A stretch of 63,980 nucleotides of DNA, counting the filler. It is 10 parts of 10 records of this genome, joined end to end, with 100 filler letters (N's around TTAATTAATTAA, not from the genome) between each part and the next. Parts side by side here need not be neighbours in the genome. Positions count along the whole stretch, not along the records: positions 6,445 to 14,143 come from SRR31147125_62594; 9 more parts are not named here. One strand, given 5' to 3'. The position numbers and the translations under genes are program-made. Of this stretch, positions 4,389 to 21,466 are shown piece after piece (position 1 is the first letter of the stretch; the number at the start of each line of letters is the position of its first letter). The notes under the pieces were generated by a model, which was not told where the DNA came from, made no database searches, and saw only the letters and a program-made list of their open reading frames with translations.

Positions 4389-6344
4389 TTGCTATTAATG
4401 ATTTCTTTCGTGTCTGCAGGCACCTTTGAAGGAACCTATTTTTCCGGTGAAGGCGATGTAGAGTATTTACGATTACTGGATATCTCCCGACGAATGTTTG
4501 CTCCGGATCCGGAATTTCAAAACGTCAGCATGTTATACACGCCATGGTGGAACGGATTTGTTGAAGGCCCTACCTGGGATGCCTGGTGGGTGCAGAATAG
4601 TTATGGACCGACATACTGCGCGCTGCCATTCTACCAGGAGCCATTTGTCACTTTTTTGCAAAATGCCCAGGATCTGTGGTTTGATCAAATGGGTGACGGT
4701 GTCCGTGTTGGCGCCAAAGACTGGGTTGCCCCGGATGGCTGTCTGTGTGATTGTGCCCGGCCTGGCTGGATTATGTATAAACAGGGTGATGGCCGCATAA
4801 ATATTCATGATTGGGGCATGGAATTTACCGCAGCAGGCTTGCTTTTACAATCAGAACTCTTGTTAATCAGCCGGGACGCGGTTGCCATTGATTCTTATCT
4901 GCCCATGCTGGAGCGGAGTGCCAATTTTATTGAAACACGTCGGGACCCGGATAACGATCTGTTTTTGGCAGGACCGGCCGGAAATTTGCTGGCACCCAGT
5001 TTTGCCGGCTGGTTGCAACCGGATAGTTCCTACAAGATGGCTTACCTGACCGGTTTGTCCATCACCTACATCGCTGCCCTCGACCGGCTTGTAGAACTGG
5101 AAAAGCTGGCCGGGCGGAAAGAAAAAGCAGATATGTATCTGGATCGACAGATCCGGGCGCGTAATGGTCTCCAGAAATTGATAACAAAAGAAGGCTATTT
5201 TATAAAATCCCTGGATCCTGATGGTACACGTCACGGTGTTTATGGGGCAGAAAAACATGGTTACTTTGAGGCTTCACCGAACCATGATGCCATCGCTTTC
5301 CGGGTTGCAGATGATAACCAGGCACGAAAAATATATAACAAGATTGCTTCTATTCCCGGCTTGCGGCGTCACCATTTTATCATTGCCAATGAACCCGGAC
5401 TTGATGACATGTACGATCCGGGTACGTCATGGCTCTGGCAGCATGGCACCTGGGTCAATGGCGGGCATTGGTCAACATGTGAAGCACGCATGATTCTGGG
5501 TTATTACCGGCTGGGTGAATATGATGACGCACGACAATCCATGAAGCATCTTCTCACTTTTGCGGAACAATTTCGCATGGACAATCCATTGGTCGAATTC
5601 GGCAGCAAAGTGTACCAGCCCAAACAGCACATTAACTTGTGTTATGACTCCTTTGGTCCACCGGCTGCTATGATTCGTGGTCTTTTTGAATACATCTATA
5701 AAGCAGAATCACTCACCCTGATCCCGCATATCCCGGATGGCATCACTCACCTGAAACAACGTTTTCCGATCCGGTTTGGCACAAAACAGCTTTATTTATC
5801 GACGACAGGACAGGGTGCGGTCACTGGTGTGTGGATCAATGGCAAACAGTGGAACTCCTTTGATGCTGTAGCGATAACGTTGGACTATGCCAACATACCT
5901 GAGCAAGCTGTTATTCGTATAGCTCTTGGAGGAGCCATAGATAATGGTAAACAATTCTATAAAGATAGTGTCCCAACAACATCCGATATCCGGGAAGCGG
6001 AAATCCCTGAAAATCCGTTCGCGAAAGATAAAAATTATCAACGCGTTTTATCTTTCTATGCTCAATTAAAGAATGCCGGATTGGAAAAAACGTATGCAGG
6101 CAGTCATGCCGCCCTGGTTATCCAGGCTGCGAATGCTTTGCGTGAACGGCGTTTTCTTTTACAAAAGGGAGAGCTCACGGCTTTGCCCGAACCGGCTTTT
6201 TCGGCAGCGGACAAGGTATATACAGATACTGTGATAAAGCTAACCGATGGACTTGTTAAAGTTCTGGAATCATATGCTGAATCGCAAAATGCGGCAAAAA
6301 CCGATATTTATAAACTCTGGATTAAAACCAATAATCTGAAAAAA
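4389..6344 (+). CDS. Putative six-hairpin glycoside hydrolase, runs to the contig end
   Basis: Long ORF; WDAWW, DWGMEFT, WVNGGHWSTCEAR motifs typical of (alpha/alpha)6 barrels; true start may lie upstream (ATG 4328) across T-runs. Confidence 0.6.
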
Positions 6345-6444
6345 NNNNNNNNNNNNNNNNNNNNNNNNNNNNNNNNNNNNNNNNNNNNTTAATTAATTAA
6401 NNNNNNNNNNNNNNNNNNNNNNNNNNNNNNNNNNNNNNNNNNNN
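6345..6444. other. Artificial contig-joining spacer
   Basis: 44 N + TTAATTAATTAA (stops in all six frames) + 44 N. Confidence 0.99.
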
Positions 6445-6883
6445 GGAGCTGATAGAAATAACTAAAAACCATACATGCATGATCAAGGTCAAAACCTCGC
6501 TTACACAATGAATTGATAACGCTATCAGCAAAAGGTACAGGTAAGGATTTAGTCTCATTAGATAACTGTTTCACAGCCAAATCATCAAAATCAAAAATAC
6601 ATTCATGATAAAGTCGAAAACAGATAGAGTAATAGAAAAGTTCACGATCTTTACCTGAAAAATCATCTAATACGGCATGGCGGGCCAGACGTTTGTCAAT
6701 TTCTATTAAATAACTATCAATAGCGTTATTATAATTATCAGCTAAGTCCTTGCCTTCCAGAGGCTTATTTACACCGGTAATCTCGTATTCAAGGGGTAAG
6801 GATTCATCACCAAAAGGGTTAGCTAATACTTTAGTATATATTTTAGAAAAAAAATTACGTTCATTTGACAATAAATTAACCAT
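6445..6883 (-). CDS. N-terminal part of a probable sigma54-interacting transcriptional activator (host gene, truncated by contig end)
   Basis: ANPF near the N-terminus and FSYFYQL at the break match my recollection of the region preceding the AAA+ domain in one enhancer-binding-protein family; a divergent sigma54 promoter lies upstream. Confidence 0.55.
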
Positions 6884-7006
6884 ATAATTTCCTCAAAAAA
6901 AAGTAAATATACAATTAATGTACACGCTACGTTCATTAGATCAAGATAAATATTAGTAACTTGAAAATTATTTAATATTTTGAACAAATAATAGCCATTT
7001 CAAATT

Positions 7007-7024
7007 TTGGTACAATTATTGCTT
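7007..7024 (+). promoter_or_regulatory. Sigma54 (-24/-12) promoter
   Basis: TTGGTACAATTATTGCTT = GG-N10-GC, close to TGGCAC-N5-TTGC. Confidence 0.65.
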
Positions 7025-7072
7025 AATGAATACAAAGTAGCAATAATATAAATAAGAAAGGTAGTTCAATAA

Positions 7073-7198
7073 ATGTGTAATAAAATTAATAGAATAATAG
7101 CTTTTATACTAGTGTTAACAGCAATAACTAGCTGGTATAATTATCATATAAGTATTTGGTTAAAAGGCATATCAAATGTATTTTACTGTGGTTTATAA
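7073..7198 (+). CDS. 41-aa ORF with signal-peptide-like N-terminus (possible gene remnant)
   Basis: GAAAGGT RBS; MCNKINRIIAFILVLTAITSWYNYHISIWLKGISNVFYCGL*; directly downstream of the sigma54 promoter; below the ORF-track cutoff. Confidence 0.4.
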   Translation: MCNKINRIIAFILVLTAITSWYNYHISIWLKGISNVFYCGL

Positions 7199-7273
7199 TA
7201 ACTTGAAAATATGACAGCGAACCGTGTTAAGCGTATTTATATCTGAAGGGGACAGAATCCAACCATACCTGCA

Positions 7274-7301
7274 ACGTCCCATAATATATATTATGTTTCA
7301 T
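7274..7301 (+). other. dif-like XerC/XerD recombination site (probable prophage att junction)
   Basis: ACGTCCCATAA-TATATA-TTATGTTTCAT has the 11-6-11 layout with inverted CATAA/TTATG cores, as in E. coli dif GGTGCGCATAA-TGTATA-TTATGTTAAAT. Confidence 0.75.
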
Positions 7302-7365
7302 TTGATATATTTTAACAAAGTCATTAATGTCTGTCAACACTGTATTTACAAAAAATATAAAAAAT

Positions 7366-7614
7366 CTAATAAATAGTTCTATTAGAGGACAAATTCATTC
7401 TTTCAATACGTAAATTATGAGACGCTTTAAATCGTTTTTCACACATTTCCTTTTCCCAACCACGAAATAAATCTAAAACCCTATCTCTTGCATCATAAAA
7501 ATCAGAAAATATCAAATCACCATCTGGCCTTTGATAGGTCTCCGAAATACTTATATTGCGTGTATCAAGAAAAACATTTACTTTATATGAAATTTGTAAT
7601 CCGTCATAACTCAT
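7366..7614 (-). CDS. Hypothetical protein (prophage accessory)
   Basis: 82-aa ORF in AT-rich DNA, no recognisable motif. Confidence 0.45.
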   Translation of the reverse strand: MSYDGLQISYKVNVFLDTRNISISETYQRPDGDLIFSDFYDARDRVLDLFRGWEKEMCEKRFKASHNLRIERMNLSSNRTIY

Positions 7615-7672
7615 ATATAATGTATCGCTATAGCTATATTAAAACTTTAATATCATAAATGGAGATTATATT

Positions 7673-8113
7673 ATGGAATTTATTTTTAGAATACTGAAAG
7701 CATTGATTGAATTACTTTTTGGCAAAAGAAAAGAAATCACAAAAACCAATAATGATTCTTTTTATGTAAAAAAACAAATTATGAGCAACGCTGAATACTC
7801 ATTCTATCAAGTACTATTATCTTTCTTAGATAACGAATATACCGTATTTACAAAAATACGCATGATTGACATTATTGGCTCAAAAAATGCATGGCAAAAA
7901 GTAATACAAAAGCATCTTGATTTTGTAATATCTAAGAACAATAAAGCCTTGTTAGCGATAGAGTTAGACGACAAATCACATAACACAAGAAAAGACAAAG
8001 ATATACAAAAAAATGAGATTCTCAAATCTGCAGGCCTTCCAATTTTAAGAATCAAATGTCAAAGAGCTTATGAAACAAAAGAACTTAAAGAAGCAATAGA
8101 ACCATATATATAA
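7673..8113 (+). CDS. DUF2726 family protein (PD-(D/E)xK-like)
   Basis: GGAG RBS; MSNAEYSFY, KIRMIDII, KHLDFVI, AIELDDKSH, KNEILKSAGLPILRI motifs. Confidence 0.85.
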   Translation: MEFIFRILKALIELLFGKRKEITKTNNDSFYVKKQIMSNAEYSFYQVLLSFLDNEYTVFTKIRMIDIIGSKNAWQKVIQKHLDFVISKNNKALLAIELDDKSHNTRKDKDIQKNEILKSAGLPILRIKCQRAYETKELKEAIEPYI

Positions 8114-8743
8114 AACATAAATGAACAGGATAAAAGTACCGCCAAATGTAACTATTGATAGCGATATTTGGTAGTTGTATTCTATGCCATATCGGCAGAA
8201 AAAAAGGTATTGACAAGATTGAGAAAACTGATAATCGTTATTGTTTATAACACAATAAGTTATAGAAAGAATAAAAATTGCAATGCCTGGTAGAATAAAT
8301 TTGCCAGGCAAATTTTCTTTGTAAGTGAAGCACAAAAATAATCCAAATACATACCATGCACCATACTCTAATGGAAGCATTGTAAACATGAATAATAGTG
8401 CAAAAGTCCGATAATACATACCCCTCTTGTAGAACTCAAACACTGCGATCGTAGCTATAAATGTCCAGATTATGTTACATTGTCCGACGAGCTGAAAATG
8501 AAACATATGAGAAAGTATTGCAAGCCAGAAAAGACGAATAATATAAGTCGGTTTGGATGAAGTATGTTGCCACGACTGAAATACAAGATAAGAATATATA
8601 GGCATGGCTATACGACCGAAGACGCGAAGCATAATCGAATCTGGAAAGAAAAAACAACCTAAATGGTCTAAAATCATAGTAAATATAGCAATGTACTGTA
8701 AGTAAGCTCTGGTCAATTCTCGATTTTGAATAACTTGCTCCAT
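8085..8743 (-). CDS. TraX family (pilin acetylase-like) membrane protein, frameshifted near 8225
   Basis: IAIFTMILDH, FGRIAMPIY, YIIRLFWLAILS, LEYG motifs; adding one T to the T4 run at 8224-8227 restores QFFSILSIPF...WRYFYPVHL with stop at 8085. Confidence 0.8.
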
Positions 8744-9933
8744 ATCATAAACTTTCTATCTGAATTACTATCTGTTTTGAAGGTTTGGAAAAAGCCTGAT
8801 ATCTGAGTATCTAAAGACTTTTGCTGGAATGAACCAAGGAGATATATTTCACCTGAATCAACAATAGCAGACGTTCTGAACTCATCTGTTGAAAGATTTG
8901 GTGCAGACTCAGTATAACCAATGATACTTGAATAGGTGAGTTCAAGAGTTAACTTTGCTTGAGAGTTACCACAGTCGATTATATGGCATGATATCTGAAG
9001 ACCTGAATCGACATCTTGATAATCGGTAGTTTGAACCGTACCCGCATCTGAGACAGTTTTTAATGGGACTTTAATTGTCTGACCTGAATGATATTCAGAT
9101 GTTTCACCATCCTGAAGTACAAACATAGGTTCTGTTATAGTTTCGATTCGTTGGTCGGTTTTATCCGCTTTTATAAATGCTGATAAAATGCCTGTTGTAG
9201 CATCTGAAGCAGAGCCATTTACAAGCTTATAAGACAAATCAAAATCAATGTTGCTATCAACTCCAAATTCATCATAAAGAGAATCGGAAATGGACATAAC
9301 ATAGAATTGAACACACCAGCTATTAATAGGGGCCGATTCTATTCTGTCAAACATCTCATCAAGTTTGCGTAATAACTGAACCCTATCGCCAACAACAACA
9401 AGACCATCGGCATAGACAAGCCCTCTACCATATTCGGAACGCAATAATTCAATTGTATTCTGAAGACTATCTTTATCAACTCGATAGACCTTCCGAACAT
9501 ATACCCCCCTGTCCTCTGCTTTAATTTCACCTAAGTAATAAAGATTTCCGGAACGGGTAAGACTGACTTCCAATCGTCTAGCCAACATATCTAAAAGTGT
9601 ATTTACCGGCTGATTTTTGACATCTATAGTGACTTTTTTATCATCTAGATTAGATGCACATATAATTGATATACCTGCCTTATCCGCTAAAAGACGAAGA
9701 AATGAAACAAGTTCCATATCGTCGACTGCCAATGTAACCGACTCTAATAAAGGTTCTGAGATAGAACTTTGTTTTGAGACTTCAGAAAGCTGTTTATAAT
9801 ATTTTTCAAAATCTGCAATATAACTATTGGACTTTACGCTGCACCCCGAGACGCAAAACAGAATCGTCAGACAAGACAGCTTTACGACGTTTATAATCAA
9901 TTCTTTTAAGTTGTTTATTTTTATGTATGCCAT
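8713..9933 (-). CDS. Secretin (filamentous-phage pIV-like export channel), lipoprotein-like signal
   Basis: N0-like VTLAVDDMEL...VTIDVKNQPV; N3-like GLVVVGD; secretin core EPMFVLQDGE...GQTIKVP...YQDVDSGL...SGEIYLLGS; lipobox-like FCVSG-C. Confidence 0.85.
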   Translation of the reverse strand: MAYIKINNLKELIINVVKLSCLTILFCVSGCSVKSNSYIADFEKYYKQLSEVSKQSSISEPLLESVTLAVDDMELVSFLRLLADKAGISIICASNLDDKKVTIDVKNQPVNTLLDMLARRLEVSLTRSGNLYYLGEIKAEDRGVYVRKVYRVDKDSLQNTIELLRSEYGRGLVYADGLVVVGDRVQLLRKLDEMFDRIESAPINSWCVQFYVMSISDSLYDEFGVDSNIDFDLSYKLVNGSASDATTGILSAFIKADKTDQRIETITEPMFVLQDGETSEYHSGQTIKVPLKTVSDAGTVQTTDYQDVDSGLQISCHIIDCGNSQAKLTLELTYSSIIGYTESAPNLSTDEFRTSAIVDSGEIYLLGSFQQKSLDTQISGFFQTFKTDSNSDRKFMIWSKLFKIEN

Positions 9934-11161
9934 AATCTATTAAATCTCCGATTTTATATTCATAACCAATCTGAAGGACTATTGAATCTGGTGTAAACAT
10001 TACTACAGTTGAATTATATTGCAATTCAGCTTTCAACCTAGCAACCTGTTTTTTCTCTAGTGTTAATTTCGCTTGTAATGCCGCCCTTTGCTGCTCAAGT
10101 ACAAATTTCTCATTCTGTAACTGGATAACAATTTCAGAGTCTATTTCATAATCAGGTTGAGACCCATCATCTTTAATAGCTTGAACAGATTGTCTCTGTT
10201 TAGATTTTATAATTTCTTTTTGAGGTTCAGAAGATTGTTCAGTTGAAGCTGAAGCAGTAGCCATACCCATGGCACCAGTAAAACCGCTCATTAACCAGTT
10301 AAGACAAGTTATCATACCACCACAAATAGAAAGCCAGAATACAAAACCAACAATAGTAAAGCGAGTTGTCAATTCAAGAGTGTTGCGGCGGATGAACCAA
10401 AACAACAAACCAAGAGATGAACGACGTTGAAACTCTTGTTTTTGTGCATTACCTTTAAAGCCGCCAGCAAATGGCTTAGAATAAGAGTCATATACTTTAT
10501 ACAACGCTGGTAATCGATAAAAATATTTCTTAAGAGGTTCACCAGTTGAATTGTCACTTTTAGTTATCTGACATATCTTTGGATTATATTCACGAGTCAA
10601 ACAAGCTTTAAGCTCATACCAATCTTTGTTTAAAATTTTAAAGATTGAATCAAAATCAGTTTCACATGTTTTAAGTTCAATTGACTGATTTGCTGAATCA
10701 CGAATCGCAGGAGGCATATTTTTGACTTGTTGTGTTAACAATTCAATAGAACCGCCTCTATGCCTTATTTCGCCTAAAAAAGTAATCCAACCTTTTATAC
10801 GTGGGTCTGATCGTTTTTCACCTTCATAAAAATTATGAACCTCATCTATAGCAATATGAGTATTGTTCAAGTTTACATCTTTGAAAAAATCCCAAGGCTC
10901 AGATTTGCCAGTACGCCAATCCTCAAGAACGTGTTTAGGTATAAGTTTAATACGCTTTTTAAGGTCACGTGGATTAAGTTTAAGGCGAGGATGAAGCCTA
11001 GCACACATGACAGCCATTTTATTAACCTTGATAGGAAAATTAGAATAATGAACGCCATCATAAAAAGGTAAGAACTCGTTAAGCAAAAATTCAGCACAAC
11101 GGCTATATGTTTTGCCAACACCAACGGAACCAGTAGTTAATGTGATAATCCCATCTGGCAT
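9824..11161 (-). CDS. Zot/pI-like morphogenesis ATPase
   Basis: Walker A TGSVGVGKT at the N-terminus, Walker B IAIDEVH, IRHRG...LLTQ, YKVYDS, one TM segment, coiled-coil and basic C-terminal tail. Confidence 0.9.
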   Translation of the reverse strand: MPDGIITLTTGSVGVGKTYSRCAEFLLNEFLPFYDGVHYSNFPIKVNKMAVMCARLHPRLKLNPRDLKKRIKLIPKHVLEDWRTGKSEPWDFFKDVNLNNTHIAIDEVHNFYEGEKRSDPRIKGWITFLGEIRHRGGSIELLTQQVKNMPPAIRDSANQSIELKTCETDFDSIFKILNKDWYELKACLTREYNPKICQITKSDNSTGEPLKKYFYRLPALYKVYDSYSKPFAGGFKGNAQKQEFQRRSSLGLLFWFIRRNTLELTTRFTIVGFVFWLSICGGMITCLNWLMSGFTGAMGMATASASTEQSSEPQKEIIKSKQRQSVQAIKDDGSQPDYEIDSEIVIQLQNEKFVLEQQRAALQAKLTLEKKQVARLKAELQYNSTVVMFTPDSIVLQIGYEYKIGDLIDYGIHKNKQLKRIDYKRRKAVLSDDSVLRLGVQRKVQ

Positions 11162-11165
11162 AATA

Positions 11166-11576
11166 CTATCCTATAAATGGTACGTGTTTAATTATGAGTT
11201 TATACGTTACATAAACGCTCAAGAAAGCCCATCTAGCGAGCAATAGAGTAAATGCGAGAGATACAGGAGCCCAACAATTTGCAACAGCATAATGTTCCAT
11301 AACAGTTGAATAATCATCAGGGGAAACGGAAAAAGCGTTAAAGGCAGCTTGCAAAAGATTACCTAACAAGTTTTCAGATAAGCCAACAACCCAATCAAAA
11401 ACAGATCGAAGAATTCCAGGATCAACTGATGTACCCCAAAATACCTCTTGCCAAAAACCTTGCTGTTCAACATTCATACTATTAGGGTCAATAGGCTCAG
11501 TCTGTTCAGCAAAAACAGGAAAACACATTGATAACAACAACACAATAATAAAACTAGTCTTCATATTCACTATCAA
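11166..11576 (-). CDS. pVI-like minor coat protein
   Basis: Small hydrophobic protein immediately upstream of Zot; C-terminus LLARWAF...KLIIKHVPFIG resembles inovirus pVI ends. Confidence 0.6.
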   Translation of the reverse strand: MIVNMKTSFIIVLLLSMCFPVFAEQTEPIDPNSMNVEQQGFWQEVFWGTSVDPGILRSVFDWVVGLSENLLGNLLQAAFNAFSVSPDDYSTVMEHYAVANCWAPVSLAFTLLLARWAFLSVYVTYKLIIKHVPFIG

Positions 11577-12855
11577 TATCCTCTTCTTTATAATCAGCTA
11601 GATCATGAAATATTTTATTAAAAAAACTTACTAATAAAAACATACTCAAAATATTGTAAGTCATATCACGGATTGTAGAAATGTCAGTACTACCAACAAC
11701 TGTATTAGACATATCAAATTGAACATCTATATCATCAACACCACAAGGCAACTGAAAAGAAATATCATGCTGAACTAAATCATCCCACCAACCAGCGAAT
11801 TCAGCACCATCTTTGATAGACTCTAGATCGTCAAAACCGTCAAAGAATCCAAGTTGATCGGTTAGCAATTGCATATTCGTATCTAAATTTGATTTGATCA
11901 TGCCTTCAGTTTGTTCTGAAATAGAATCCGAATCGGAATAATCCCAAACCCAATAATCAGGGACTACATCTGGAGCAGAAAAAGAAATACCATCAGGAAG
12001 ATTCAAACCACAGAATTCATAGTAATCGGAATTGAAATTATAAAAATTATGGAAATCAAAAAATTTATAATATACCCACCTATAGCGATACTGTACGAAT
12101 CCCAAGCCGCCTATATAGTCAGGATAAACAGCTCTTAATGTTCCAGCACTGGGGTAATGCCCTAAATAATCCGAACCTTTGCCGAGCGGAAAAACAACAT
12201 AGACACTCATTTCACCACCGTCAAATAAATCTAAAGGAAATATATTATCGGGGTTAAAAGGGACGGATGTACGATATTCGTTATGTTCCTTTGCCGACTT
12301 ATTACAAAAAGTATAATCAGGAGCTTCATTCAAACTAACTGCAGGGTCATAAAAAACATCACCTGTAGAATAATCTACTGTAGGTATAAGCGTAAAATAA
12401 CCGCCTCCATGATAAGAGGCTGAACATAATGCATTTTTAGACTCGAGGTACCAGAATGTAGCATAAGTACCCTGTCTTGAAACTATTTGCCAATCATTAG
12501 CAATAGTATCTAAGTATTCCTGGGTGATCGGCGAGCCGTCATAGTTTGGCAGAAGTGCTTTAGGGTCAATAAAGCAATAGTAATAAAAATTACTATCCTT
12601 AGAATGATAAATAGTCATGTCGCCGAACATGGGATGATTTATAGTTTCTACGTTATCGATTACTGGTGCATTTTGCCAGCCTGTATAGTCTACATCTGTA
12701 CGCCATTGAGTAAAAAAATGCTTAACTGAAGGAGTCAAACTGGTATAACTAGAAGACATAACAGCAAAGTCAGCCATGTTGACAACGCCATCATTATTTA
12801 AGTCTTGAGCAAAAGCAGAGAAACATAAAAAAATTATTATGATAAATATACGCAT
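11554..12855 (-). CDS. pIII-like adsorption protein with N-terminal dockerin-type Ca-binding loop
   Basis: Signal peptide; DLNNDGVVNMAD at residues 18-29; C-terminal TM anchor IRDMTYNILSMFLLVSFF; located upstream of pVI-like and Zot genes. Confidence 0.6.
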   Translation of the reverse strand: MRIFIIIIFLCFSAFAQDLNNDGVVNMADFAVMSSSYTSLTPSVKHFFTQWRTDVDYTGWQNAPVIDNVETINHPMFGDMTIYHSKDSNFYYYCFIDPKALLPNYDGSPITQEYLDTIANDWQIVSRQGTYATFWYLESKNALCSASYHGGGYFTLIPTVDYSTGDVFYDPAVSLNEAPDYTFCNKSAKEHNEYRTSVPFNPDNIFPLDLFDGGEMSVYVVFPLGKGSDYLGHYPSAGTLRAVYPDYIGGLGFVQYRYRWVYYKFFDFHNFYNFNSDYYEFCGLNLPDGISFSAPDVVPDYWVWDYSDSDSISEQTEGMIKSNLDTNMQLLTDQLGFFDGFDDLESIKDGAEFAGWWDDLVQHDISFQLPCGVDDIDVQFDMSNTVVGSTDISTIRDMTYNILSMFLLVSFFNKIFHDLADYKEEDIDSEYED

Positions 12856-12856
12856 A

Positions 12857-13477
12857 TTATTTTACAATTACTGAAGTAAAAGAAGGACCTAATAAATTGG
12901 CAGAGTTAAAAGCACTATTAACAATAGAATTGTTACCAACTGCAAAAATATAATCAAATGAAAAGAAAGAACAAACGCCTGTATAAATCACATTATCACT
13001 GTAAGTACATAAATTAAATTTGAACAATAACGATTTTAAAGTTGAAGAATTGCACGAATCATCAGTTACAAACTGAAAGTCACAATAAGAAAAAATATAA
13101 TCGTCACAAAAAATCTCAATGTAATAGTCGTCAGAGTAAATAATATAACTACCAGTATCAATAAAAACATCAAAATAAAAGCTATCGTAATGGGCGTCAA
13201 AGTTAGAGAAAGTTAACGTGATAGCATCATTAACAGGTTTACCAGAATCACAAAAAACAGAATCATTATAAGATAAAAGGAAAGTCTCAATATAATCAGT
13301 GTTGTCTTTACAATCATATAGCCAATCCGAAAAAAATAACCTATTGTCTGAAATATTCGGGTCATAATTTTTTGAATACTCCGAAAAATCTATTAAATCA
13401 ACTCGATTATCATTATTAACGTCAGCAGAATATACAACACATGCAAAACTAATCAAAATCAACATTATCATTTTCAT
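12857..13477 (-). CDS. Secreted phage protein with dockerin-type Ca-binding loop
   Basis: Signal peptide ending VYSA; DVNNDNRVDLID at residues 19-30; Asp/Tyr/Phe-rich. Confidence 0.6.
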   Translation of the reverse strand: MKMIMLILISFACVVYSADVNNDNRVDLIDFSEYSKNYDPNISDNRLFFSDWLYDCKDNTDYIETFLLSYNDSVFCDSGKPVNDAITLTFSNFDAHYDSFYFDVFIDTGSYIIYSDDYYIEIFCDDYIFSYCDFQFVTDDSCNSSTLKSLLFKFNLCTYSDNVIYTGVCSFFSFDYIFAVGNNSIVNSAFNSANLLGPSFTSVIVK

Positions 13478-13838
13478 GGTTTATCTCCATTCCAAGTATA
13501 AAAGAAAATCTATTCATTAAATCATTATCGATTTCTTGTTTACTATTTTTATAAGTGTTTGGGTCTAAATCTCTTGATAAAAGAATATCCATATCAACAG
13601 AATACAACTCGATAAGTATATTAGAAGCTTCATGCTGTTCAGCAGTCAAAAGACCTATAGAATTAGGGTCAACATACATATCGTCAGATGTAAGACCGAC
13701 AGACAGCCTTGCATCATTAACAGCACAAGTTAGAGAATCAGACAAAACTACACGCCTTGCTAATAATTCAATCATAGAATCAGCAAAAAGAGTTACTGAA
13801 ACCAAACACACGATTACCATTGTCTTAAATATGTCCAT
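13449..13838 (-). CDS. Secreted hypothetical phage protein
   Basis: Signal-peptide-like N-terminus; overlaps both neighbouring genes. Confidence 0.55.
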   Translation of the reverse strand: MDIFKTMVIVCLVSVTLFADSMIELLARRVVLSDSLTCAVNDARLSVGLTSDDMYVDPNSIGLLTAEQHEASNILIELYSVDMDILLSRDLDPNTYKNSKQEIDNDLMNRFSFILGMEINHENDNVDFD

Positions 13839-14143
13839 ATCTTTTCAAAAATGCTATAAATAAAAATAAGCTCAAACAGAGTTTCATTGTTTTTCTAACA
13901 GTATCAAGAGTAGAGCCCGGTTCAGGTAGCATACTCCAACGAACTTCAACACCTTCATACATACCAAGTCCAGGTAAATTGAAAACAAACTCTTTGTTTG
14001 TTTCTTCTAAATCAGCAAAAGGAACAAATGTTGGTGAAGGGTCAAAACCTAAATCATCTCCAGTAACAGAAATACTATCACCATCTAATTCAAAATGAAC
14101 ATCAGGCTCGATTGGGTCACCAGCCAAAAGTAAGGAAGGTAAA
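13825..14143 (-). CDS. Phage protein with C-terminal TM anchor (5' truncated)
   Basis: Frame is open to the contig edge (LPSLLLAGDPIE...); C-terminus VRKTMKLCLSLFLFIAFLKR. Confidence 0.55.
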
Positions 14144-14243
14144 NNNNNNNNNNNNNNNNNNNNNNNNNNNNNNNNNNNNNNNNNNNNTTAATTAATTAAN
14201 NNNNNNNNNNNNNNNNNNNNNNNNNNNNNNNNNNNNNNNNNNN
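14144..14243. other. Artificial contig-joining spacer
   Basis: N44-TTAATTAATTAA-N44. Confidence 0.99.
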
Positions 14244-15208
14244 GTTTTTGCAAACATTGTATGGCCGAAGCCAAAAAGTTGGGAATTGATTTGGAGAAAA
14301 TTAAAAAAGCATTAGCAAAAGATAAAAATTCTCAACCCGAAAGGGACCAGTGGATGGCTTTTCGGGCAGCTTCTACCACACGTTTTTATAAAGATATTTC
14401 AGAAGAAATTGCGCGGGTAAAAATGAATCCCAAATGCCATCTTCGATACAACGATACTTATCCATACCGGGGAAAAGAAGGATGGAATCCACGTGATTTG
14501 AGTATGTACATCGACGATGTGTCGGAACATTTGGGGTCGTTAGTTAATCAAGATCATCAGGAACAAGAGGGCAACCTCGGGGAAACATTTGCACGTCGAA
14601 AAAGATGGCTGACAACCAACCGTAATTTTATTGGTGACGATATGCCACTAATTTGTGGAATTGCGCCGCGAATGAAAGCAACTCCCGAACTGGTAAAAGC
14701 CGGGATAAAAGTTGCTTTGGAACATCCTGCCAATGTAAACGGTATTGCGCTAAAACATTACGATGGTGCTTCGTTTGGTTTATTGCGGGCTTTTAAACAG
14801 GGAATGATTGAAGCCGGAGTTCAGGGCTTAACACCAACCATGGGCAAAGAATTCGAAGAAATGAAGCTTACCAACTTTGCCATTGTTAATGATTTTGTGG
14901 AAGAGTGGGGAGTTGAAACATCGGGGAAAGGTGTGGCTACTTTTAACTTTAATTACCCAAACGGAACTTACGATATTCGAATCAGCTATTTCGATGAGGA
15001 AGCAGGAAATAGTAAAATTACATTGTTTGTTGCAAACGAAGCAAAAGTAAGCTTTCAACTTGATGAAAACTCGGACTGCTGGCGTTGGCGTTTGTTTAAA
15101 GACATTCAGATTAATAAAGGCGATAAAATACGAGTTGTAGCAGAAGCCGATGGTAGCGAGCAAGTTCGGTTGGATTATATTGAATTTATAGCAAAGGATG
15201 AGGAATAA
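14244..15208 (+). CDS. C-terminal part of a putative CAZyme with CBM-like beta-sandwich
   Basis: 5' truncated; C-terminal GTYDIRISYFDE...GDKIRVVAE...VRLDYIEF typical of CBM6/35-like modules. Confidence 0.5.
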
Positions 15209-15220
15209 AAAACAACTAAA

Positions 15221-16981
15221 TTGATAGATATGAATAAAATAGCTGTGTCATTATTACTTGTATGTTTTGTGCTGAACAATGCAGTTGCACAAGAATCTGA
15301 ACTACCAAACACGAAAAATTATTGGAACACTGAAATACCTTTAGTATCGTACCGTTTACCTCCGCCGCCAGCAGGCTATAAACCCACTTTGGTGGATATG
15401 GATAATGATGGCGATCCGGATTTAATTTATTCTGTTACCATCCACAATACACCCATATTGTGGATCGACGATGACGATGACATGAAAAATGATGACCTGG
15501 AAGGTGATACCGACAGCGACTGCCTGTTAGTAGATGTTAATAATGATGGTAAATACTGCGATCAGAGCGATATTGCGGTGGACTGGATTGATACAGATTT
15601 GGACAACAAAGCTGATATGCAGGTATTTATCGAGAATGCGCGGGAGGAAAATGGCAAAAGACGTAGAGGAGGACATTACATGTGGGTTATCGATACCGAC
15701 AACGACAATGTGTTCAACTACATCGATTGGAACAGTTTTAAACTACTGGCATGGTTGCGCGAGGGAAGCTCCGGTTTTCTGGAAGATTATGTGGGCCAAA
15801 GCACTTTTTTAAAAGCACATGCTTCAACCTACCAAATGAACGATGTTCGCCTGAGCTGGGAAAATCCTTTTTTGTTTTTCGATCAGGATGATGACGGATT
15901 AACCGAAATGGCTTATCGGGGATTGGATCAACCCGAGTCTCGCGAAAATGGCTATACCGAAGAAAAAATAAGCTACGTAGGCCTTACTTTCGATTTAGAC
16001 AATGACAACGCTCCCGGAAATGAATTTGATTACGATATGTCGTTTCGATTCACTGGTAATGGCTTTAATTATATGGATCAGGTACATAAATTCCGTAACC
16101 CACGCGTAGAGGAGGCAGATACTTTTTTCAGAGATTCCCGTTGGCGACAATTAACCGAGCTAATTTATCCGGGGTTCGACTCTGCTTTAGACCTGACGTA
16201 TGAAAGAGGAGAATGGGATGAAATTTATTTTGTTTACGACGAAGATGACGATTGCGAACGTTGGGAAAGGGTAGAGTTTTACGAACCCCTTAATCCATTT
16301 AAAACAGGCAGGCGTAATGGAGGATTAGATAATAATCCACAGGCCGATGCCATAGGAGACCGCGGCGAATGGGATTTGGATAACAGTGGAAACGCTAATC
16401 TGTACATCTCTAAATTCGATGGCAGAATACATCTTTTTGGCGCAGAATGGGGGTGTTGGAGAGTCGATCAGCTAGCCAATTCCTTTCAGGGAACCGGTGG
16501 CTATCGTTCCAATGCCGATCGTACACAAAGAGAGTTCGCTCCTTTTAGCACTTTAAAATACGAAGACACTGACGACAACGGTTTTATCGATAAAATTGAA
16601 ATGGACATTGATGGTGATACCATTTTTGAAAAGACAGTGCTTCTGAAAGACCTTGGTATTGATGACTGTTGCGATATCATAAATACATCTAAAATGGAGT
16701 ACGATGATTTTAGAAAACTTCATATCTCCATGTCGGAAAATATTTGGCAAAATGCCCGGCAAGCCCTGAAAATTGCCGAAAATAAAGGATTGAATACGTC
16801 GTGGTATGCCTTTATGAAAAGTCCGAAATCGGAATCGCAAAAATACAGTTACGGCTATTGGTTGCAATTCTACATTTACATGGATTTGGTTTATCAGGCC
16901 AAACAAAACGGGAAAGATCAGGAACTAGGCATAATTGACAAAGCTTATTTTGGTGGCAATTGGCAACTTTTAGTAAATTAA
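15221..16981 (+). CDS. Secreted Asp-rich protein with many DxDxDG-type Ca-binding motifs
   Basis: Signal peptide; DMDNDGDPD, DVNNDG, DTDLDN, DTDNDN, DQDDDG, DLDNDN, DTDDNG, DIDGD. Confidence 0.7.
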   Translation: MIDMNKIAVSLLLVCFVLNNAVAQESELPNTKNYWNTEIPLVSYRLPPPPAGYKPTLVDMDNDGDPDLIYSVTIHNTPILWIDDDDDMKNDDLEGDTDSDCLLVDVNNDGKYCDQSDIAVDWIDTDLDNKADMQVFIENAREENGKRRRGGHYMWVIDTDNDNVFNYIDWNSFKLLAWLREGSSGFLEDYVGQSTFLKAHASTYQMNDVRLSWENPFLFFDQDDDGLTEMAYRGLDQPESRENGYTEEKISYVGLTFDLDNDNAPGNEFDYDMSFRFTGNGFNYMDQVHKFRNPRVEEADTFFRDSRWRQLTELIYPGFDSALDLTYERGEWDEIYFVYDEDDDCERWERVEFYEPLNPFKTGRRNGGLDNNPQADAIGDRGEWDLDNSGNANLYISKFDGRIHLFGAEWGCWRVDQLANSFQGTGGYRSNADRTQREFAPFSTLKYEDTDDNGFIDKIEMDIDGDTIFEKTVLLKDLGIDDCCDIINTSKMEYDDFRKLHISMSENIWQNARQALKIAENKGLNTSWYAFMKSPKSESQKYSYGYWLQFYIYMDLVYQAKQNGKDQELGIIDKAYFGGNWQLLVN

Positions 16982-16996
16982 ATAAAACAACATAAG

Positions 16997-18244
16997 ATGA
17001 TTTTAGTGAAAAATGGGAATAGGTTCGAAAATAACAACCTGAAAATGATTGTAAACAGAATCAGTGGAATACTAAGCATCGCATGTTTGATGCTCTTATT
17101 ATGTTCCTGTGGCGAAAAGAAATCAGAATTATTGATAAGCGACGGAACTGTTTTTGAACCACAGGCAAGTTTTCCAAAATTTAGTTGGGAAACCACACCC
17201 ATGTATTATCACTTCGGAGATATAGACCGGGTGTTGGAGCCTGAAGAAGTGAAGTTTATAGCCGAACGAACCGATTTTATATGTATTGAAAAATCGCATG
17301 GGTACAACCAGCTTGGCGACCAGGTGTTGGGCACAAAACACGAAGTGGAAGCGTTTCATAAAATCAAGCCAGAGTCTAAAGTAATGTTCTATTATAATTC
17401 GTATTTGGCATGGCCTTATCCTCGGTTTAATAAAGAATTTACACCAGAAGGCATTGCTAAAAACCCAGAGTTAGCTAAATTCCTATTTGTAAGTCCAAAG
17501 ACTGGAAAATTAAGGGAAAAAACCAAGCCGGCATTTTCATACTATTTTGATGCCTTAAATCCTGATTTCCGCAAATGGTGGATTGAGTCGGCTGCTGAAG
17601 GTGTTAAAATATCAGGTGCTGATGGAATTTTTATCGACCGCATGAATGTGGGCTTAAATATGGATTATCCGAATGATAAGATAGTTGAAATAGCAAAAGC
17701 CAAGGGCGAAATGATGGCTGGATTAAAGGAAAAAATGGGGCCTGATAAAATATTGATTGGAAACAACGCTGCCGACACTAAAGAGGTTTTTCCGCATTGC
17801 GATGGATTCTTTTTCGAACATTATAATAACACCGTTACCAATAAAGAACACCTGCTAAAAGAATGGGGTGATATGGAACGAATTGCAAAGGCTGGAAAAT
17901 TCTCGATTTATCGTTTTGGAGCCAAAGGTAAAGGTAAAACAGATATAACCATTGGCGAAACAATTACCGACGGCATGGTAGAACGTTCAAAAAAACAGTT
18001 GGAATATTACCACGCTTGTTTCCTCATTGGCGCACAACCCTATTCTTATTTTCAATGGAACTGGGGATGGAATTTGCCCGATGGAAATCTGGTCGATTAT
18101 CCGGCATTTAAAAAACCTTTAGGTGCGCCAAAAGAAGCTTTTAAACGTGTAAGCCCCGAAGGCTGGGAGTTTACCCGCGAATTTGAAAATGCCAGTGTTT
18201 GGGTAAATACCGAAACCAAAAAAGCTAAAATAACCTGGCGCTAA
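16997..18244 (+). CDS. Putative glycoside hydrolase, GHL15/GH168 (endo-fucanase)-like lipoprotein
   Basis: Lipobox LLCSC; PKFSWET...FIAERTDFICIEKSHG, ADGIFID, FLIGAQPYSYF, PLGAP...FTREFENASVWVN. Confidence 0.7.
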   Translation: MILVKNGNRFENNNLKMIVNRISGILSIACLMLLLCSCGEKKSELLISDGTVFEPQASFPKFSWETTPMYYHFGDIDRVLEPEEVKFIAERTDFICIEKSHGYNQLGDQVLGTKHEVEAFHKIKPESKVMFYYNSYLAWPYPRFNKEFTPEGIAKNPELAKFLFVSPKTGKLREKTKPAFSYYFDALNPDFRKWWIESAAEGVKISGADGIFIDRMNVGLNMDYPNDKIVEIAKAKGEMMAGLKEKMGPDKILIGNNAADTKEVFPHCDGFFFEHYNNTVTNKEHLLKEWGDMERIAKAGKFSIYRFGAKGKGKTDITIGETITDGMVERSKKQLEYYHACFLIGAQPYSYFQWNWGWNLPDGNLVDYPAFKKPLGAPKEAFKRVSPEGWEFTREFENASVWVNTETKKAKITWR

Positions 18245-18249
18245 TTTTT

Positions 18250-20688
18250 TTGAAAACTAAACTAATAAGCTATTTCATGAATAAAATTCGAATAGTATTG
18301 CTGGGGATAGTAGTAAGCGTTTTGCTCAGTTGTAATACGGATAAAAACACCAAATCAGCAGATTCTAAAACTCGGCCTTCCCATCGGGGATTAACAATGA
18401 TTACTCCTGCATCGCAATGGCGCGAAGCATTGCCTTCGGGAAACGGAACCATTGGAGCAATGGTGTACGGTGCAATCGGAACCGAACGAATTCTATTCAA
18501 CCATAATTTGCTGTGGTTTGGTGGCACAAGGTCTGAATTGCCTGACATGTCGCAAGAATTGCCGCTTGTGCGCAAAATGATGTTGGAAGGGAATTACGGG
18601 CCCGCCAATATGCACTACGTCAATAAAATGATAGAGAAAGGCTTCAACGGAAAACATGCCGACTATCATCCTGCATTCGACATGCTGCTAACCATGGAGC
18701 GCGAGTTGCTTTTCGAAGATTATTCGCGAACGCTTAATTTTGAAACCGGAGAAATTGAAGTGAAGTGGAGAGATGGGGATACCAAATATTCGCGTCGCTT
18801 GTTTGTTTCTATTCCCGACGATATTTCGGTGGTTTCTTTAAAAGCCAATAAAAAAAATGCCATTAATGGTGCAGTTACTTTAGATATTCACGACCTGCGC
18901 GATGCGGTGAATATGCATGGCAAGCAGTTCGACCCAGGTTTTTCGTTTCAAACCATTGTGGATGGAGAGTTTGTGGAGTTCCGTGCCGATGGAACCGACG
19001 GCGGCGAATTTGGTGGCCTTGTTCGGGTTATTGCAAAAAATGGAAAAACGGGTGAAAAAGAAGGAGAACGTTTGCATTTCAGTGCACATAAATCCGGTGA
19101 TTTTATTACGTTTAGTAATGCTGATGAGTTGGTGCTTATGGTTGCCCTTTACGCCAACGAGCCCGGAGAAAAAGCTGTGCCCCGATTGAAAAAACAACTT
19201 GCCGGCTTCGATGCCGATTACGAAGCGTTGTTTAATCGTCACAAGGATATTCACAGCGAACTTTTTAAGCGTGTGGGGATTACTATAAATACCGATGGCG
19301 AAAGAGATACTCCAAATGAAAAATTATTGTTGGATGCGTATCAAAATAAGGCCTCAAAAGAGTTGATTGAAAAATTGGCTGATTACGGTAGGTATCTATT
19401 GATTTCCAGTAGTCGAGAAGGTGGAGTTCCGGCAAACCTGCAGGGATTATGGAATGGCGATTACGCACCGCCCTGGCACGGACACTACGGAAATAACGAA
19501 AACATTCAGATGAATTACTGGCAGGCCATGCCGGGTAATTTAAGCGAGTCGATGTTGGCATTTTTCGATTTTTTCGATGCACACATGGACGAATTCCGTT
19601 ACAACGCCAAACAACTTTGGGGATGCCGTGGAATCTATATTCCTCCGTTTATGACACCGGCAAACCCCGTTACGGTTGAAAACCAGGCACACACCATAAA
19701 CTGGACAGAAGCGGCCGGTTGGTTAGCATCGTTTTACTACGATTATTATTTGTTTACTGGGGATGAAGAGTTCCTCGAAAAGCGTGCAGTTCCATTTCTA
19801 AAAGAAACCGCTTTGTTCTACGAAGATTTTATCATTAAAGATGAGAAGGGCAAGAATATGTTTGTCCCATCTGAATCGCCGGAAAATCAGCCGGCCGATA
19901 AAGTTTGGTTTAATCCGGAAACCGGACGTAACGAAAGCATTCGCATTCAAATTAACTCAACAATGGCTGTTGCAGTTTCAAAAGAGGTGTTTACAAACTT
20001 GGTTACTGCTTGCGAAATTTTAGATATCGAAAAAGAGGGTATAAAACGATGGAAATCGTTGTTGGCAGCTATGCCCGAATACGAAATAAACGAAGACGGT
20101 GCCATGCGCGAATGGTTACATCCTGATTTTGATGATAATTACGAACATCGTCACGAATCGCATGTCTACCCGATTTTCCCGGGGCACGAAGTAACTTTGG
20201 AATCGAATCCTGAAATTTATGAGGCTTGTAGAATTGCCATTGAAAAACGAAAAACCATTGGTTTAAAAGCACAAACCGGTTGGTCGATGGCACACATGTC
20301 GAATGTTTATGCACGTTTGGGGCAAGGCGATAAAGCCAAAGAAGCCCTTGATATTTTGGCGCGTTGTTGCCTGGGGCAAAACCTGTTTACCTACCACAAC
20401 GATTGGCGTTATATGGGTGTTACAGGAAGTGGTTTCTGGGGAAAATCTGCCCCTTTTCAAATGGATGCTAATTTCGGAATAACCGCTGCTTTGTACGAAA
20501 TGTTATGTGGTTCAAACGCCGAAATGCTTCGAATCTTACCTTCGCTACCAGCCGATTTTACATCTGGAGAGTTTCACGGTATGCTAACTCGTGTTGGAGT
20601 AACTACTTTGGCGAATTGGGATATGGATAAAAAACAAATCAATATTAGCTTGCTAGCAGAACGCGACACCGATTTTACCATCCAATTT
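18250..20688 (+). CDS. GH95 alpha-L-fucosidase (3' truncated)
   Basis: WREALPSGNGTIGAM, YGRYLLISSSR, PANLQGLWN, NENIQMNYW, SESPEN, HRHESH, FQMDANFG. Confidence 0.93.
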
Positions 20689-20788
20689 NNNNNNNNNNNN
20701 NNNNNNNNNNNNNNNNNNNNNNNNNNNNNNNNTTAATTAATTAANNNNNNNNNNNNNNNNNNNNNNNNNNNNNNNNNNNNNNNNNNNN
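20689..20788. other. Artificial contig-joining spacer
   Basis: N44-TTAATTAATTAA-N44. Confidence 0.99.
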
Positions 20789-21466
20789 AAACCTACCGTC
20801 TCCCGTAATTGAAAAATTTCCAATATTCCAATCTACCATTACAGGTATGGTCTCAATTTCGGTTGTATAATTTACTTTATCAACATTGTTCAGAAAACTA
20901 TCGGTATGGCGCAATATCAAATCTTTATGCTCCTCGCGCATTTTTATTTCGCTCTTATGTATCGAGCGTTTCAATTTCTGCATATCGGTAACCACACTTT
21001 TCGACGAATGCGGAAGTTGATTGGTAACATTGGTACAAGCCTTATGAAAACGAGCTAACTCGCGTCCCATTTTTTTTATGTGCTTTTCTTCAAGCCGGCG
21101 AGGTAATTTTTTTCGAATCTGAATGGGATTATAAAAAACCACCCAGGCACTTCGGTCGCGCTCGTGATAACGATAAATAAACAACTCGTTACGTTTTACC
21201 AACGATTGCGCCAAAAACATTTGATAAGGATGCTCAAGATTATTGGCCAGATTATTTATAATAATATGATCTTCCCTAAAATCTTCGAAGGTACCGTACT
21301 CCGACAGCTTTGCAAATACAGGCTCTCGGGTATAAAAAGAGATTTTGTACACATGATTGGTCGACACCATGGCACTAACGTCGAATACACCTTTAATTTC
21401 ATGCCTGTCATTATCGAATTCTCTCCAGGCAAACTTTATTATTTGTGCATAGTCCAGCTTCTGCAT
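20789..21466 (-). CDS. APH / choline-kinase-like phosphotransferase (3' truncated)
   Basis: STNHVYKI...VFAKL, MGRELARFH, Brenner-like VDWNIGNF. Confidence 0.7.

Follow-up and report, generated by a model that had tools for sequence, protein, structure and literature searches.

The stretch of DNA analysed here, which we call the window, is 63,980 bases long and consists of ten contigs of 5.1–7.7 kb joined by linkers of the form N44-TTAATTAATTAA-N44, two of which lie at 6345–6444 and 14144–14243, with seven more elsewhere. Our subject is the 7,699 nt contig at 6445–14143, both ends of which are cut, and on which phage genes occupy the DNA from 7302 to the contig end. Our conclusion, to which we attach a probability of roughly 85%, is that an inovirus-type (Tubulavirales) prophage has inserted at dif in the chromosome of an uncultured member of the Planctomycetota–Verrucomicrobiota–Lentisphaerota group, and that this contig holds its right-hand part; the host most likely lies near Phycisphaerae/Sedimentisphaerales. 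The genes at 4389–6392 and 14261–15208 lie on other contigs across the linkers, and are thus not part of the genomic context of the element.

The case for a filamentous phage begins with the gene array. At its centre, on the minus strand, lie a pI/Zot-type assembly ATPase of 445 aa (9824–11161; Pfam Zot 4.7e-8, 33.2 bits; PHROGs phrog_197, Zot-like, 4.6e-11) and a secretin, pIV, of 406 aa (8713–9933; Pfam Secretin 1.4e-10, 41.4 bits; PHROGs phrog_1012, 'protein IV of M13', 8.3e-15). The ATPase has the pI layout of P-loop, DE motif, membrane span and periplasmic tail, and its residues G14 and K17 (P-loop), D106 and E107 are invariant across 26 sequences. The N-terminus of pIV ends in VSGC, which we take to resemble a lipoprotein signal. 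Also on the minus strand, upstream of pI, are a putative pVI-like small membrane protein of 136 aa (11166–11576), assigned by position and weak similarity, and a candidate pIII-like adsorption protein of 433 aa (11554–12855), which has a signal peptide, a calcium-loop-like N-terminus and a C-terminal hydrophobic anchor. The secretin gene is followed on the same strand by a gene for a predicted TraX-family membrane acyltransferase of 232 aa (8045–8743; Pfam TraX 2.3e-11, 44.5 bits). Matches to Zot, Secretin, TraX and DUF2726 all exceed the curated Pfam cut-offs (20.3 bits for Zot, 27.5 for Secretin and 25 for TraX). The compact one-strand order of adsorption protein, pVI, pI and pIV is found on the contig and is the same in relatives; neighbouring minus-strand open reading frames (ORFs) range from overlapping by 110 nt to lying 4 nt apart, and all phage ORFs except TraX are intact.

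An original prediction, made from the letters alone, had described a tightly overlapping, AT-rich array running from secreted or transmembrane proteins through pIII-like, pVI-like, Zot/pI and secretin genes to TraX. The ORFs lie in these places, the Pfam and PHROGs matches bear the order out, and the GC content of the contig is 0.33. Its suggestion of dockerin-type loops did not survive: both the 433-aa protein and a 206-aa protein described below have an N-terminal signal peptide and, after it, a D-x-N-x-D loop, yet each matches only a single half-repeat of Dockerin_1 (PF00404), at 15.8 and 15.4 bits respectively, below the Pfam cut-off of 22.9.

The array stops at a dif-type site. The 28 nt at 7274–7301 on the plus strand, ACGTCCCATAATATATATTATGTTTCAT, of which 7274 is the first base, have the 11-6-11 layout characteristic of dif sites and mark the junction between host and phage; the left arm adjoins the host DNA, and the right arm, a perfect dif arm, adjoins the phage. 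An 18-nt core of the site is unique in the window, shuffled sequence being expected to yield 0.16 matches at three or fewer mismatches. Three chromosomes that carry related prophages, here termed G001, G002 and G003, were searched with a 16-nt core: the exact core occurs once in each of the two complete Sedimentisphaerales chromosomes, at 2.27 of 4.59 Mb in G002 and at 2.11 of 4.24 Mb in G003, and is not found in G001. The site in the window is identical to that of G002 at 27 of 28 positions, and 22 nt, ATAATATATATTATGTTTCATT, are common to the window, G002 and G003. Sampled GC skew in G002 is positive in 8/8 samples at 0.24–1.92 Mb and negative in 7/9 at 2.16–3.6 Mb; given as noisy 20-kb samples, and with two dnaA-like genes in each of G002 and G003, the skew is consistent with a terminus near the G002 site without proving it, and is only supportive. 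The same 28-mer also occurs on three Joint Genome Institute metagenome contigs (L061–L063, GC 0.42–0.47) that carry neither phage genes nor the activator discussed next, and these probably represent unoccupied dif sites in related organisms.

On the host side of the junction, a 390-nt intergenic spacer of GC 0.25 (6884–7273) is followed by the 5' part, 146 codons long, of a minus-strand gene that is cut by the contig end (6445–6883). Its product has 91 relatives at E≤1e-3, and because a Sigma54_activat (AAA+) domain follows the matched N-terminal ∼145 aa in 10 of the 16 hits scanned (nine of those ten being 397–508 aa long), we interpret it, on N-terminal domain homology, as the start of a sigma54-dependent activator. 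The possibility that this end gene encodes a phage Rep or regulator was considered and rejected, the fragment being that of a sigma54 activator with a homologue beside the G002 dif site. That homologue, a 497-aa protein with Sigma54_activat, shows 37% identity over aa 1–146 (E 9e-30). Measured from a 36-nt blastn match, activator and site are 326 nt apart in G002 and 383 nt apart on the contig, in the same orientation, with the gene pointing away. The opposite side of the G002 site is occupied by a PQQ beta-propeller gene that is conserved with G003; on the contig, that side is phage. Because the near-identical, single-copy G002 site has an activator homologue beside it in the same arrangement, we interpret 6445–7273 as host DNA, 7274–7301 as the junction, and the phage as inserted at dif, in agreement with the earlier proposals that the array ends at a dif-like site beside a host regulator and that integration proceeded through dif.

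Relatives of the element were sought through pI, which has 40 relatives at E≤1e-3 in a large protein database, the best two, at 46% and 41% identity, being encoded on 8.5- and 6.5-kb contigs. Twenty pI loci were found in a scan of species-representative genomes, and in IMG/VR an alignment scan added four further loci where a single-protein scan had found none; together these form the set of 24 relatives (L001–L024) to which the counts below refer. Members of this clade, for example L004 from Sedimentisphaerales, L013 from Phycisphaerales and the uncultivated virus genome L022, share a block of pVI-like, pI and pIV genes with the window. Over the best aligned segment pI is 27–43% identical to that of the window; pIV, 23–40% identical, adjoins pI in 22 of the 24 loci, the two exceptions being cut contigs. 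Weak tblastn matches to the pVI-like protein (E 5e-4 to 2e-8) lie just upstream of pI in 12/24 loci. All five annotated relatives (L001, with two, L002, L003, L004 and L022) carry a rolling-circle Rep of the REP_ORF2-G2P, Rep_trans or Rep_1 families, and their genes are ordered Rep, small proteins, pIII-like, pVI, pI, pIV. Six elements were scanned at the five annotated loci, and in four of them the protein in the pIII position has calcium-binding repeats of the TSP3_bac family. Some relatives are viral contigs of 6–9 kb.

These relatives also provided a candidate for the major coat protein. A profile was built from six candidate sequences from five loci, and candidate genes lie at 7671–7898 of L004, 7657–7884 of L006, 2136–2366 of L022, 2642–2896 of L003 and 7069–7311 of L009. 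The candidates have a signal peptide, an L-P-D-T-G-type motif (L-P-D/T-T-G-V/I-D), a hydrophobic glycine-rich helix and a basic tail. On the pI strand, 18/24 loci have a match to this profile; in 17 of them the match is upstream of pI, and that of L012 lies ∼3.3 kb downstream of pIV. As the relatives' coat gene is upstream of pI in all but one of the loci with a hit, the coat gene of the present element would lie beyond 14143, and it is likely that the Rep, single-stranded DNA-binding protein (SSB) and coat genes are all located there. Taken together, the recurring pVI-like, pI and pIV block, Rep in the annotated relatives, the pIII-like protein and the coat candidates uphold the proposal of a filamentous phage.

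The use of dif appears to extend to other members of the clade. We scanned for a left arm ACGTCCGATAA (two or fewer mismatches), six free bases and TTATGTT (one mismatch at most), and found this pattern in 8/24 loci within the fetched flanks, compared to a single hit for a reversed control over the same 369,079 bases. Five of the loci (L013, L014, L015, L018 and L020) have perfect arms, and in a 400 kb background of G002 the true dif alone has perfect arms. In L013, direct dif-type sites at 5472 and 17201, 11.7 kb apart, enclose pI and pIV; left arm and centre are identical between the two, and the right arm is degenerate in one and full in the other. Two such direct flanking sites are the configuration expected of an XerCD-integrated element. 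Some 4.8 kb of the L013 element lies downstream of pIV. The 6.9-kb viral contig L022 has a dif-type site 183 nt after pIV, and no integrase among the eight ORFs scanned, which are those upstream of pI.

A second assembly of the same DNA is available. One public run shares 99% of the contig's words and is probably its source sample, and two Logan contigs from it cover the whole stretch at a depth of ∼7. The first, of 3,201 nt, spans 6445–8523 plus 1,120 nt beyond 6445, crossing host flank, dif and phage unbroken; the second, of 6,008 nt, spans 8506–14143 plus 369 nt beyond 14143. That both run past the contig demonstrates that it is cut at either end. Depth is equal on the two sides of the junction (6.8 and 7.3). 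A check for a circular junction, proposed with the original prediction, came back empty: there is no circular joint among the Logan contigs, nor any overlap between the two ends of our contig, and we have rejected the idea of a circular genome. Relative to the window, the Logan sequence has one extra A in the homopolymers after 6894, 8223 and 13846. The A missing at 13846 alters the last residues of a 100-aa ORF, and that at 8223 breaks TraX. As it stands in the window, TraX matches its Pfam profile over aa 12–131 only and its alignment to relatives stops at residue 172, the remaining profile positions 173–213 being found in a second frame of the window. With the extra A, the TraX ORF becomes 219 aa long, with a probable true end at 8085, and aligns over residues 3–218 to TraX of L004 (E 1e-29) and L005, and over almost the same span to that of L006 and L007. 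Given that the Logan base restores full-length alignment and that the tail is present in the second frame, the frameshift is probably an assembly error.

As to the host, the genome loci bear the label Planctomycetota in 17 of 20 cases. Ten of these are Phycisphaerae (Phycisphaerales, Phycisphaeraceae, Sedimentisphaerales and Tepidisphaerales), five are Planctomycetaceae or Pirellula, and two are unclassified; the remaining three loci comprise one each from Victivallales, Verrucomicrobiota and a 1.3-kb contig labelled Zixibacteria. The host-flank gene has matches at E≤1e-10 in 11 of 401 sampled Planctomycetota genomes, the best being G002 (38%, 2.7e-27), compared to 7 of 301 genomes of the phylum of Victivallales, where the best match is 31% at 1.5e-14. 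Because the flank gene is matched best in G002, and given the identity of the dif site and the synteny around it, we favour a Phycisphaerae-like host, most likely near Phycisphaerae/Sedimentisphaerales, although the pI tree points the other way. In this tree, obtained by a quick maximum-likelihood analysis and comprising 32 pI sequences, pI of the element groups only with the two metagenome proteins that match it best (46% and 41% identity), P0001 and P0002, neither of which has a known host; the Shimodaira–Hasegawa-like approximate likelihood ratio test (SH-aLRT) values are 95 and 100, respectively. The proposal of a Planctomycetota or Phycisphaerae host is thus in keeping with the locus labels and with the best match of the flank gene to Sedimentisphaerales, but not with the tree. 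The contig's GC of 0.33, which is shared by its host-flank part, is well below that of the other nine contigs (0.40–0.56), so the binning is doubtful and the contig may be mis-binned; the bin as a whole looks heterogeneous, with contig GC from 0.33 to 0.56.

A number of observations weigh against our interpretation. In the pI tree, the sequence from the window falls outside the Planctomycetota clades, and the trio that it forms with P0001 and P0002 sits, weakly (SH-aLRT 92, the fork being drawn open), by Verrucomicrobiota, Victivallales and two IMG/VR sequences. The activator that adjoins dif in G002 does not do so in G003, where a Laminin_G protein directly follows the site, and in five further loci from Planctomycetota the activator gene was found to have no dif-type site within ∼1.5 kb, making us wary that the activator may belong to a variable, dif-associated segment. 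Only one junction is seen, with no circular joint and no second dif-like site on the contig, and the Logan assembly, probably derived from the source sample, does not constitute independent data. The contig lacks Rep, SSB and any major coat gene that could be recognised, and the coat profile of the lineage has no hit there at E≤10, even when the three homopolymer corrections are included. TraX is frameshifted in the window's version. Finally, the 433-, 206-, 129-, 100- and 82-aa proteins are without detectable relatives, and the names pIII-like and pVI-like rest on position, topology and weak hits.

Some of these observations could be accounted for if the element were a decayed remnant, with a morphogenesis half persisting at dif, the replication and coat module lost, and particles no longer made. 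Such a remnant would agree with the failure to find Rep, SSB and coat genes in 6.8 kb of phage DNA, with the frameshift in TraX and with the lack of a circular joint. We nevertheless regard decay as unlikely, given that the phage ORFs other than TraX are unbroken and closely spaced, that the TraX frameshift lies in a homopolymer and is absent from the second assembly, that the reading frame is open at 14143 with at least 369 nt of DNA continuing beyond it, and that relatives carry the missing genes exactly upstream of this block. Another explanation is that a free episomal phage genome has been misjoined to host DNA across a shared dif-like sequence. The phage attachment site (attP) and the host dif would share ∼28–36 nt, which could mislead an assembler, the depth is low (∼7), and the contig comes from one sample only; but the bin contig and a Logan contig both cross the junction unbroken and at equal depth, and relatives are integrated beside dif-type sites within long chromosomal contigs, so that a misjoin strikes us as very improbable.

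It might also be asked whether these genes belong to a virus at all, rather than to a chromosomal secretion or pilus-type apparatus, given that secretin and P-loop ATPase genes are also part of type II secretion and type IV pilus systems, and that NCBIfam reports a weak PilQ/GspD similarity, far below its cut-offs. We find this hardly credible. The ATPase is of the Zot/pI type and not GspE/PilB, the secretin matches the M13 pIV family in PHROGs, no pseudopilin or platform genes are present, and the block ends at a dif junction; moreover, Rep is found in 5/5 annotated relatives and a coat candidate in 18/24 loci, and some of the relatives are viral contigs of 6–9 kb. An integrated inovirus-type prophage remains our preferred interpretation of the contig.

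The element is unusual in one respect only: its assembly operon includes TraX. TraX is found in 5/24 loci (L004–L008), where it scores 92–108 bits in Pfam, and it overlaps its neighbours in three different arrangements: after pIV in the window, between pI and pIV in L004–L007, and between pVI and pI in L008, where the gene lies between the pVI-like hit and pI. Because it overlaps its neighbours within the assembly operon, and does so in three arrangements, a role in assembly or envelope modification is suggested. The F-plasmid TraX, which acetylates pilin, is a member of the same Pfam family and is likewise encoded in an operon whose products build small membrane proteins into a helical filament. 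In contrast to that system, no conjugation gene is near TraX in the window, and the NCBIfam equivalog for F-type TraX (TIGR02755) is matched at 28.5 bits, far below its cut-off of 149.35. We thus assign the window protein to the TraX family (PF05857) as a predicted acyltransferase, and not as an orthologue of F-type TraX. It is tempting to speculate, by analogy with pilin acetylation, that TraX has been recruited as a regular part of filament assembly, acylating the coat or another virion or envelope protein at the inner-membrane exit. We offer this idea tentatively and consider it doubtful; to our knowledge, such an acylation step has not been described for any filamentous phage.

Among deposited phages, TraX has five weak matches, all to unannotated gut records. 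One TraX-bearing record, L059 (MT838246.1, 5.5 kb, 'Bacteriophage sp.'), was opened and set aside: it is nuclease-rich, encoding PLD-like, PD-(D/E)XK and Mrr nucleases along with a full TraX, and has no Zot or secretin match among its seven ORFs. It looks like a defence-island fragment with no recognisable phage gene.

Convergent with TraX, on the plus strand at 7673–8113, is a DUF2726 (restriction-endonuclease-like) accessory gene of 146 aa (Pfam 3.4e-25). A DUF2726 gene directly follows pIV in 2/24 loci, L002 and L010. The functions that we assign to TraX and DUF2726 are guesses. The remaining genes of the contig are all on the minus strand. Between DUF2726 and the junction lies an ORF for an 82-aa protein (7366–7614), the last phage gene before the junction, for which no family was found in Pfam, PHROGs, PADLOC or NCBIfam. 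On the other side, upstream of the pIII-like gene, are a 206-aa secreted protein (12857–13477), whose signal peptide and D-x-N-x-D loop make its N-terminus parallel to that of the pIII-like protein, and which has no match across the 24 related loci; a 129-aa protein (13449–13838) that has a signal or anchor at its N-terminus, and neither a family in Pfam or PHROGs nor a relative in the 24 loci; and the 3' part of a gene (13825–14143) in which a 100-aa ORF (13825–14127), acidic and with a C-terminal hydrophobic segment, is in a frame that stays open to the contig end. Neither the pIII-like protein nor TraX has a homologue in a 5.8-billion-cluster database, although the shared-word search used is weak evidence, and for the pIII-like protein the Atlas gave no usable hit. 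PADLOC finds no defence family on the contig, save one weak mad8 match for pI. There is no integrase among the contig's ORFs according to Pfam, the rest of the element lying beyond the contig, and no tRNA genes or long repeats of note are present.

We can propose how such an element would work by drawing on the known biology of M13/Ff, CTXphi and VGJphi. Host XerC and XerD would recombine a dif-like attP with dif, bringing the phage genome into the chromosome and leaving at 7274–7301 a hybrid site with a host-derived left arm and a phage-derived right arm. Upon activation, a rolling-circle Rep, encoded off the contig, would produce single-stranded circles. Coat proteins residing in the inner membrane would then be assembled around the single-stranded DNA by the pI ATPase, and inner-membrane pI together with the phage's own outer-membrane secretin, pIV, would extrude the filament, leaving the cell unlysed. 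Capping of the filament and receptor binding are expected of the pVI-like and pIII-like proteins, and the extra secreted 206- and 129-aa proteins, plus the 100-aa protein, may enlarge the structural module. TraX would probably acylate a phage or envelope protein during assembly, with DUF2726 a putative nuclease-like accessory gene.

Compared to its own clade, the element differs in several respects. Its pIII-like protein and three further proteins of the structural module are without relatives, its TraX gene comes after pIV and not before it as in L004–L008, and it sits at dif, whereas L002 and L004 carry tyrosine integrases. Comparison with the Ff phages (M13/fd/f1), which are not known to integrate, shows the same order of pIII, pVI, pI and pIV, a phage-encoded secretin, and the shared secretin family PHROG 1012; but TraX, DUF2726 and additional secreted proteins are found in the window element, whose pI and pIV show no tblastn similarity to the Ff phages. 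Like CTXphi, VGJphi, Cf1c and XacF1, it is filamentous, encodes no integrase in the portion covered by the contig, and is inserted at the host dif, though those phages have hosts among the Proteobacteria and show no sequence match to its pI or pIV. CTXphi is known to use a host secretin, whereas the window element has its own. The Vibrio phage Vaf1 (Inoviridae, OP297622.1) has Zot and Secretin followed by DUF2726 on the opposite strand, as seen here, but DUF2726 alone is similar (27% identity), TraX is absent and the host is gammaproteobacterial.

None of the three main traits, being an inovirus, encoding a secretin and integrating through XerCD/dif, is new in itself; the element is a further instance of them, from a poorly sampled host group. 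XerCD/dif integration of XacF1, Cf1c, CTXphi and VGJphi is described in passages of PMC4076744, inoviruses are claimed from Lentisphaerae isolates in part of PMC11361711, and a chronic but hexagonal phage is reported for a Phycisphaerae isolate in part of PMC10945688. In the literature that we searched there is no description of dif-integrated inoviruses in Planctomycetota, Verrucomicrobiota or Lentisphaerota; Planctomycetes go unmentioned in the main text and in parts of two supplements of Roux et al. 2019, the full tables of which may list such hosts. Neither pI nor pIV has a tblastn match in 50,697 deposited phage records. To this extent the claim of a new lineage holds, but it is new only relative to described phages: 40 pI relatives, 20 genome loci and four IMG/VR contigs are already public.

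With its relatives, the contig suggests that a filamentous, dif-integrated lifestyle known in Proteobacteria is also found in the Planctomycetota–Verrucomicrobiota–Lentisphaerota group. A working consensus for dif in these phyla follows from it (ACGTCCGATAA as left arm, TTATGTT as right arm and 6 nt between the two), as does a conserved coat-protein family for this pI clade. The small accessory set of TraX and DUF2726 has a possible, and testable, role in chronic infection, and the element could aid the development of genetic tools for bacteria that are hard to manipulate.

Lastly, the chromosomes that served for comparison show some local features of their own. Beside dif in G002 (L044, 1–8200), ∼8 kb precede a Laminin_G_3 protein and hold the sigma54 activator, small ORFs, a Mutator-family transposase, a flavodoxin-like gene and a pseudopilin; in G003 (L025, 1534–3016) a Laminin_G_3 protein comes directly after dif. 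The ∼8 kb in G002 may thus vary between genomes or be mobile. A Phycisphaerales chromosome (L001, ∼4700–21356) carries two diverged inovirus prophages at a distance of ∼10.8 kb, with 75–87% nucleotide identity in patches, and with Rep_trans in one and Rep_1 in the other. G002 has a near-identical block of pVI, pI, TraX and pIV twice (L004 and L005), 18.6 kb apart; the L004 copy has a tyrosine integrase upstream and, downstream, a cluster of C-5 methylase, HATPase and Z1-domain genes with the look of a defence island.

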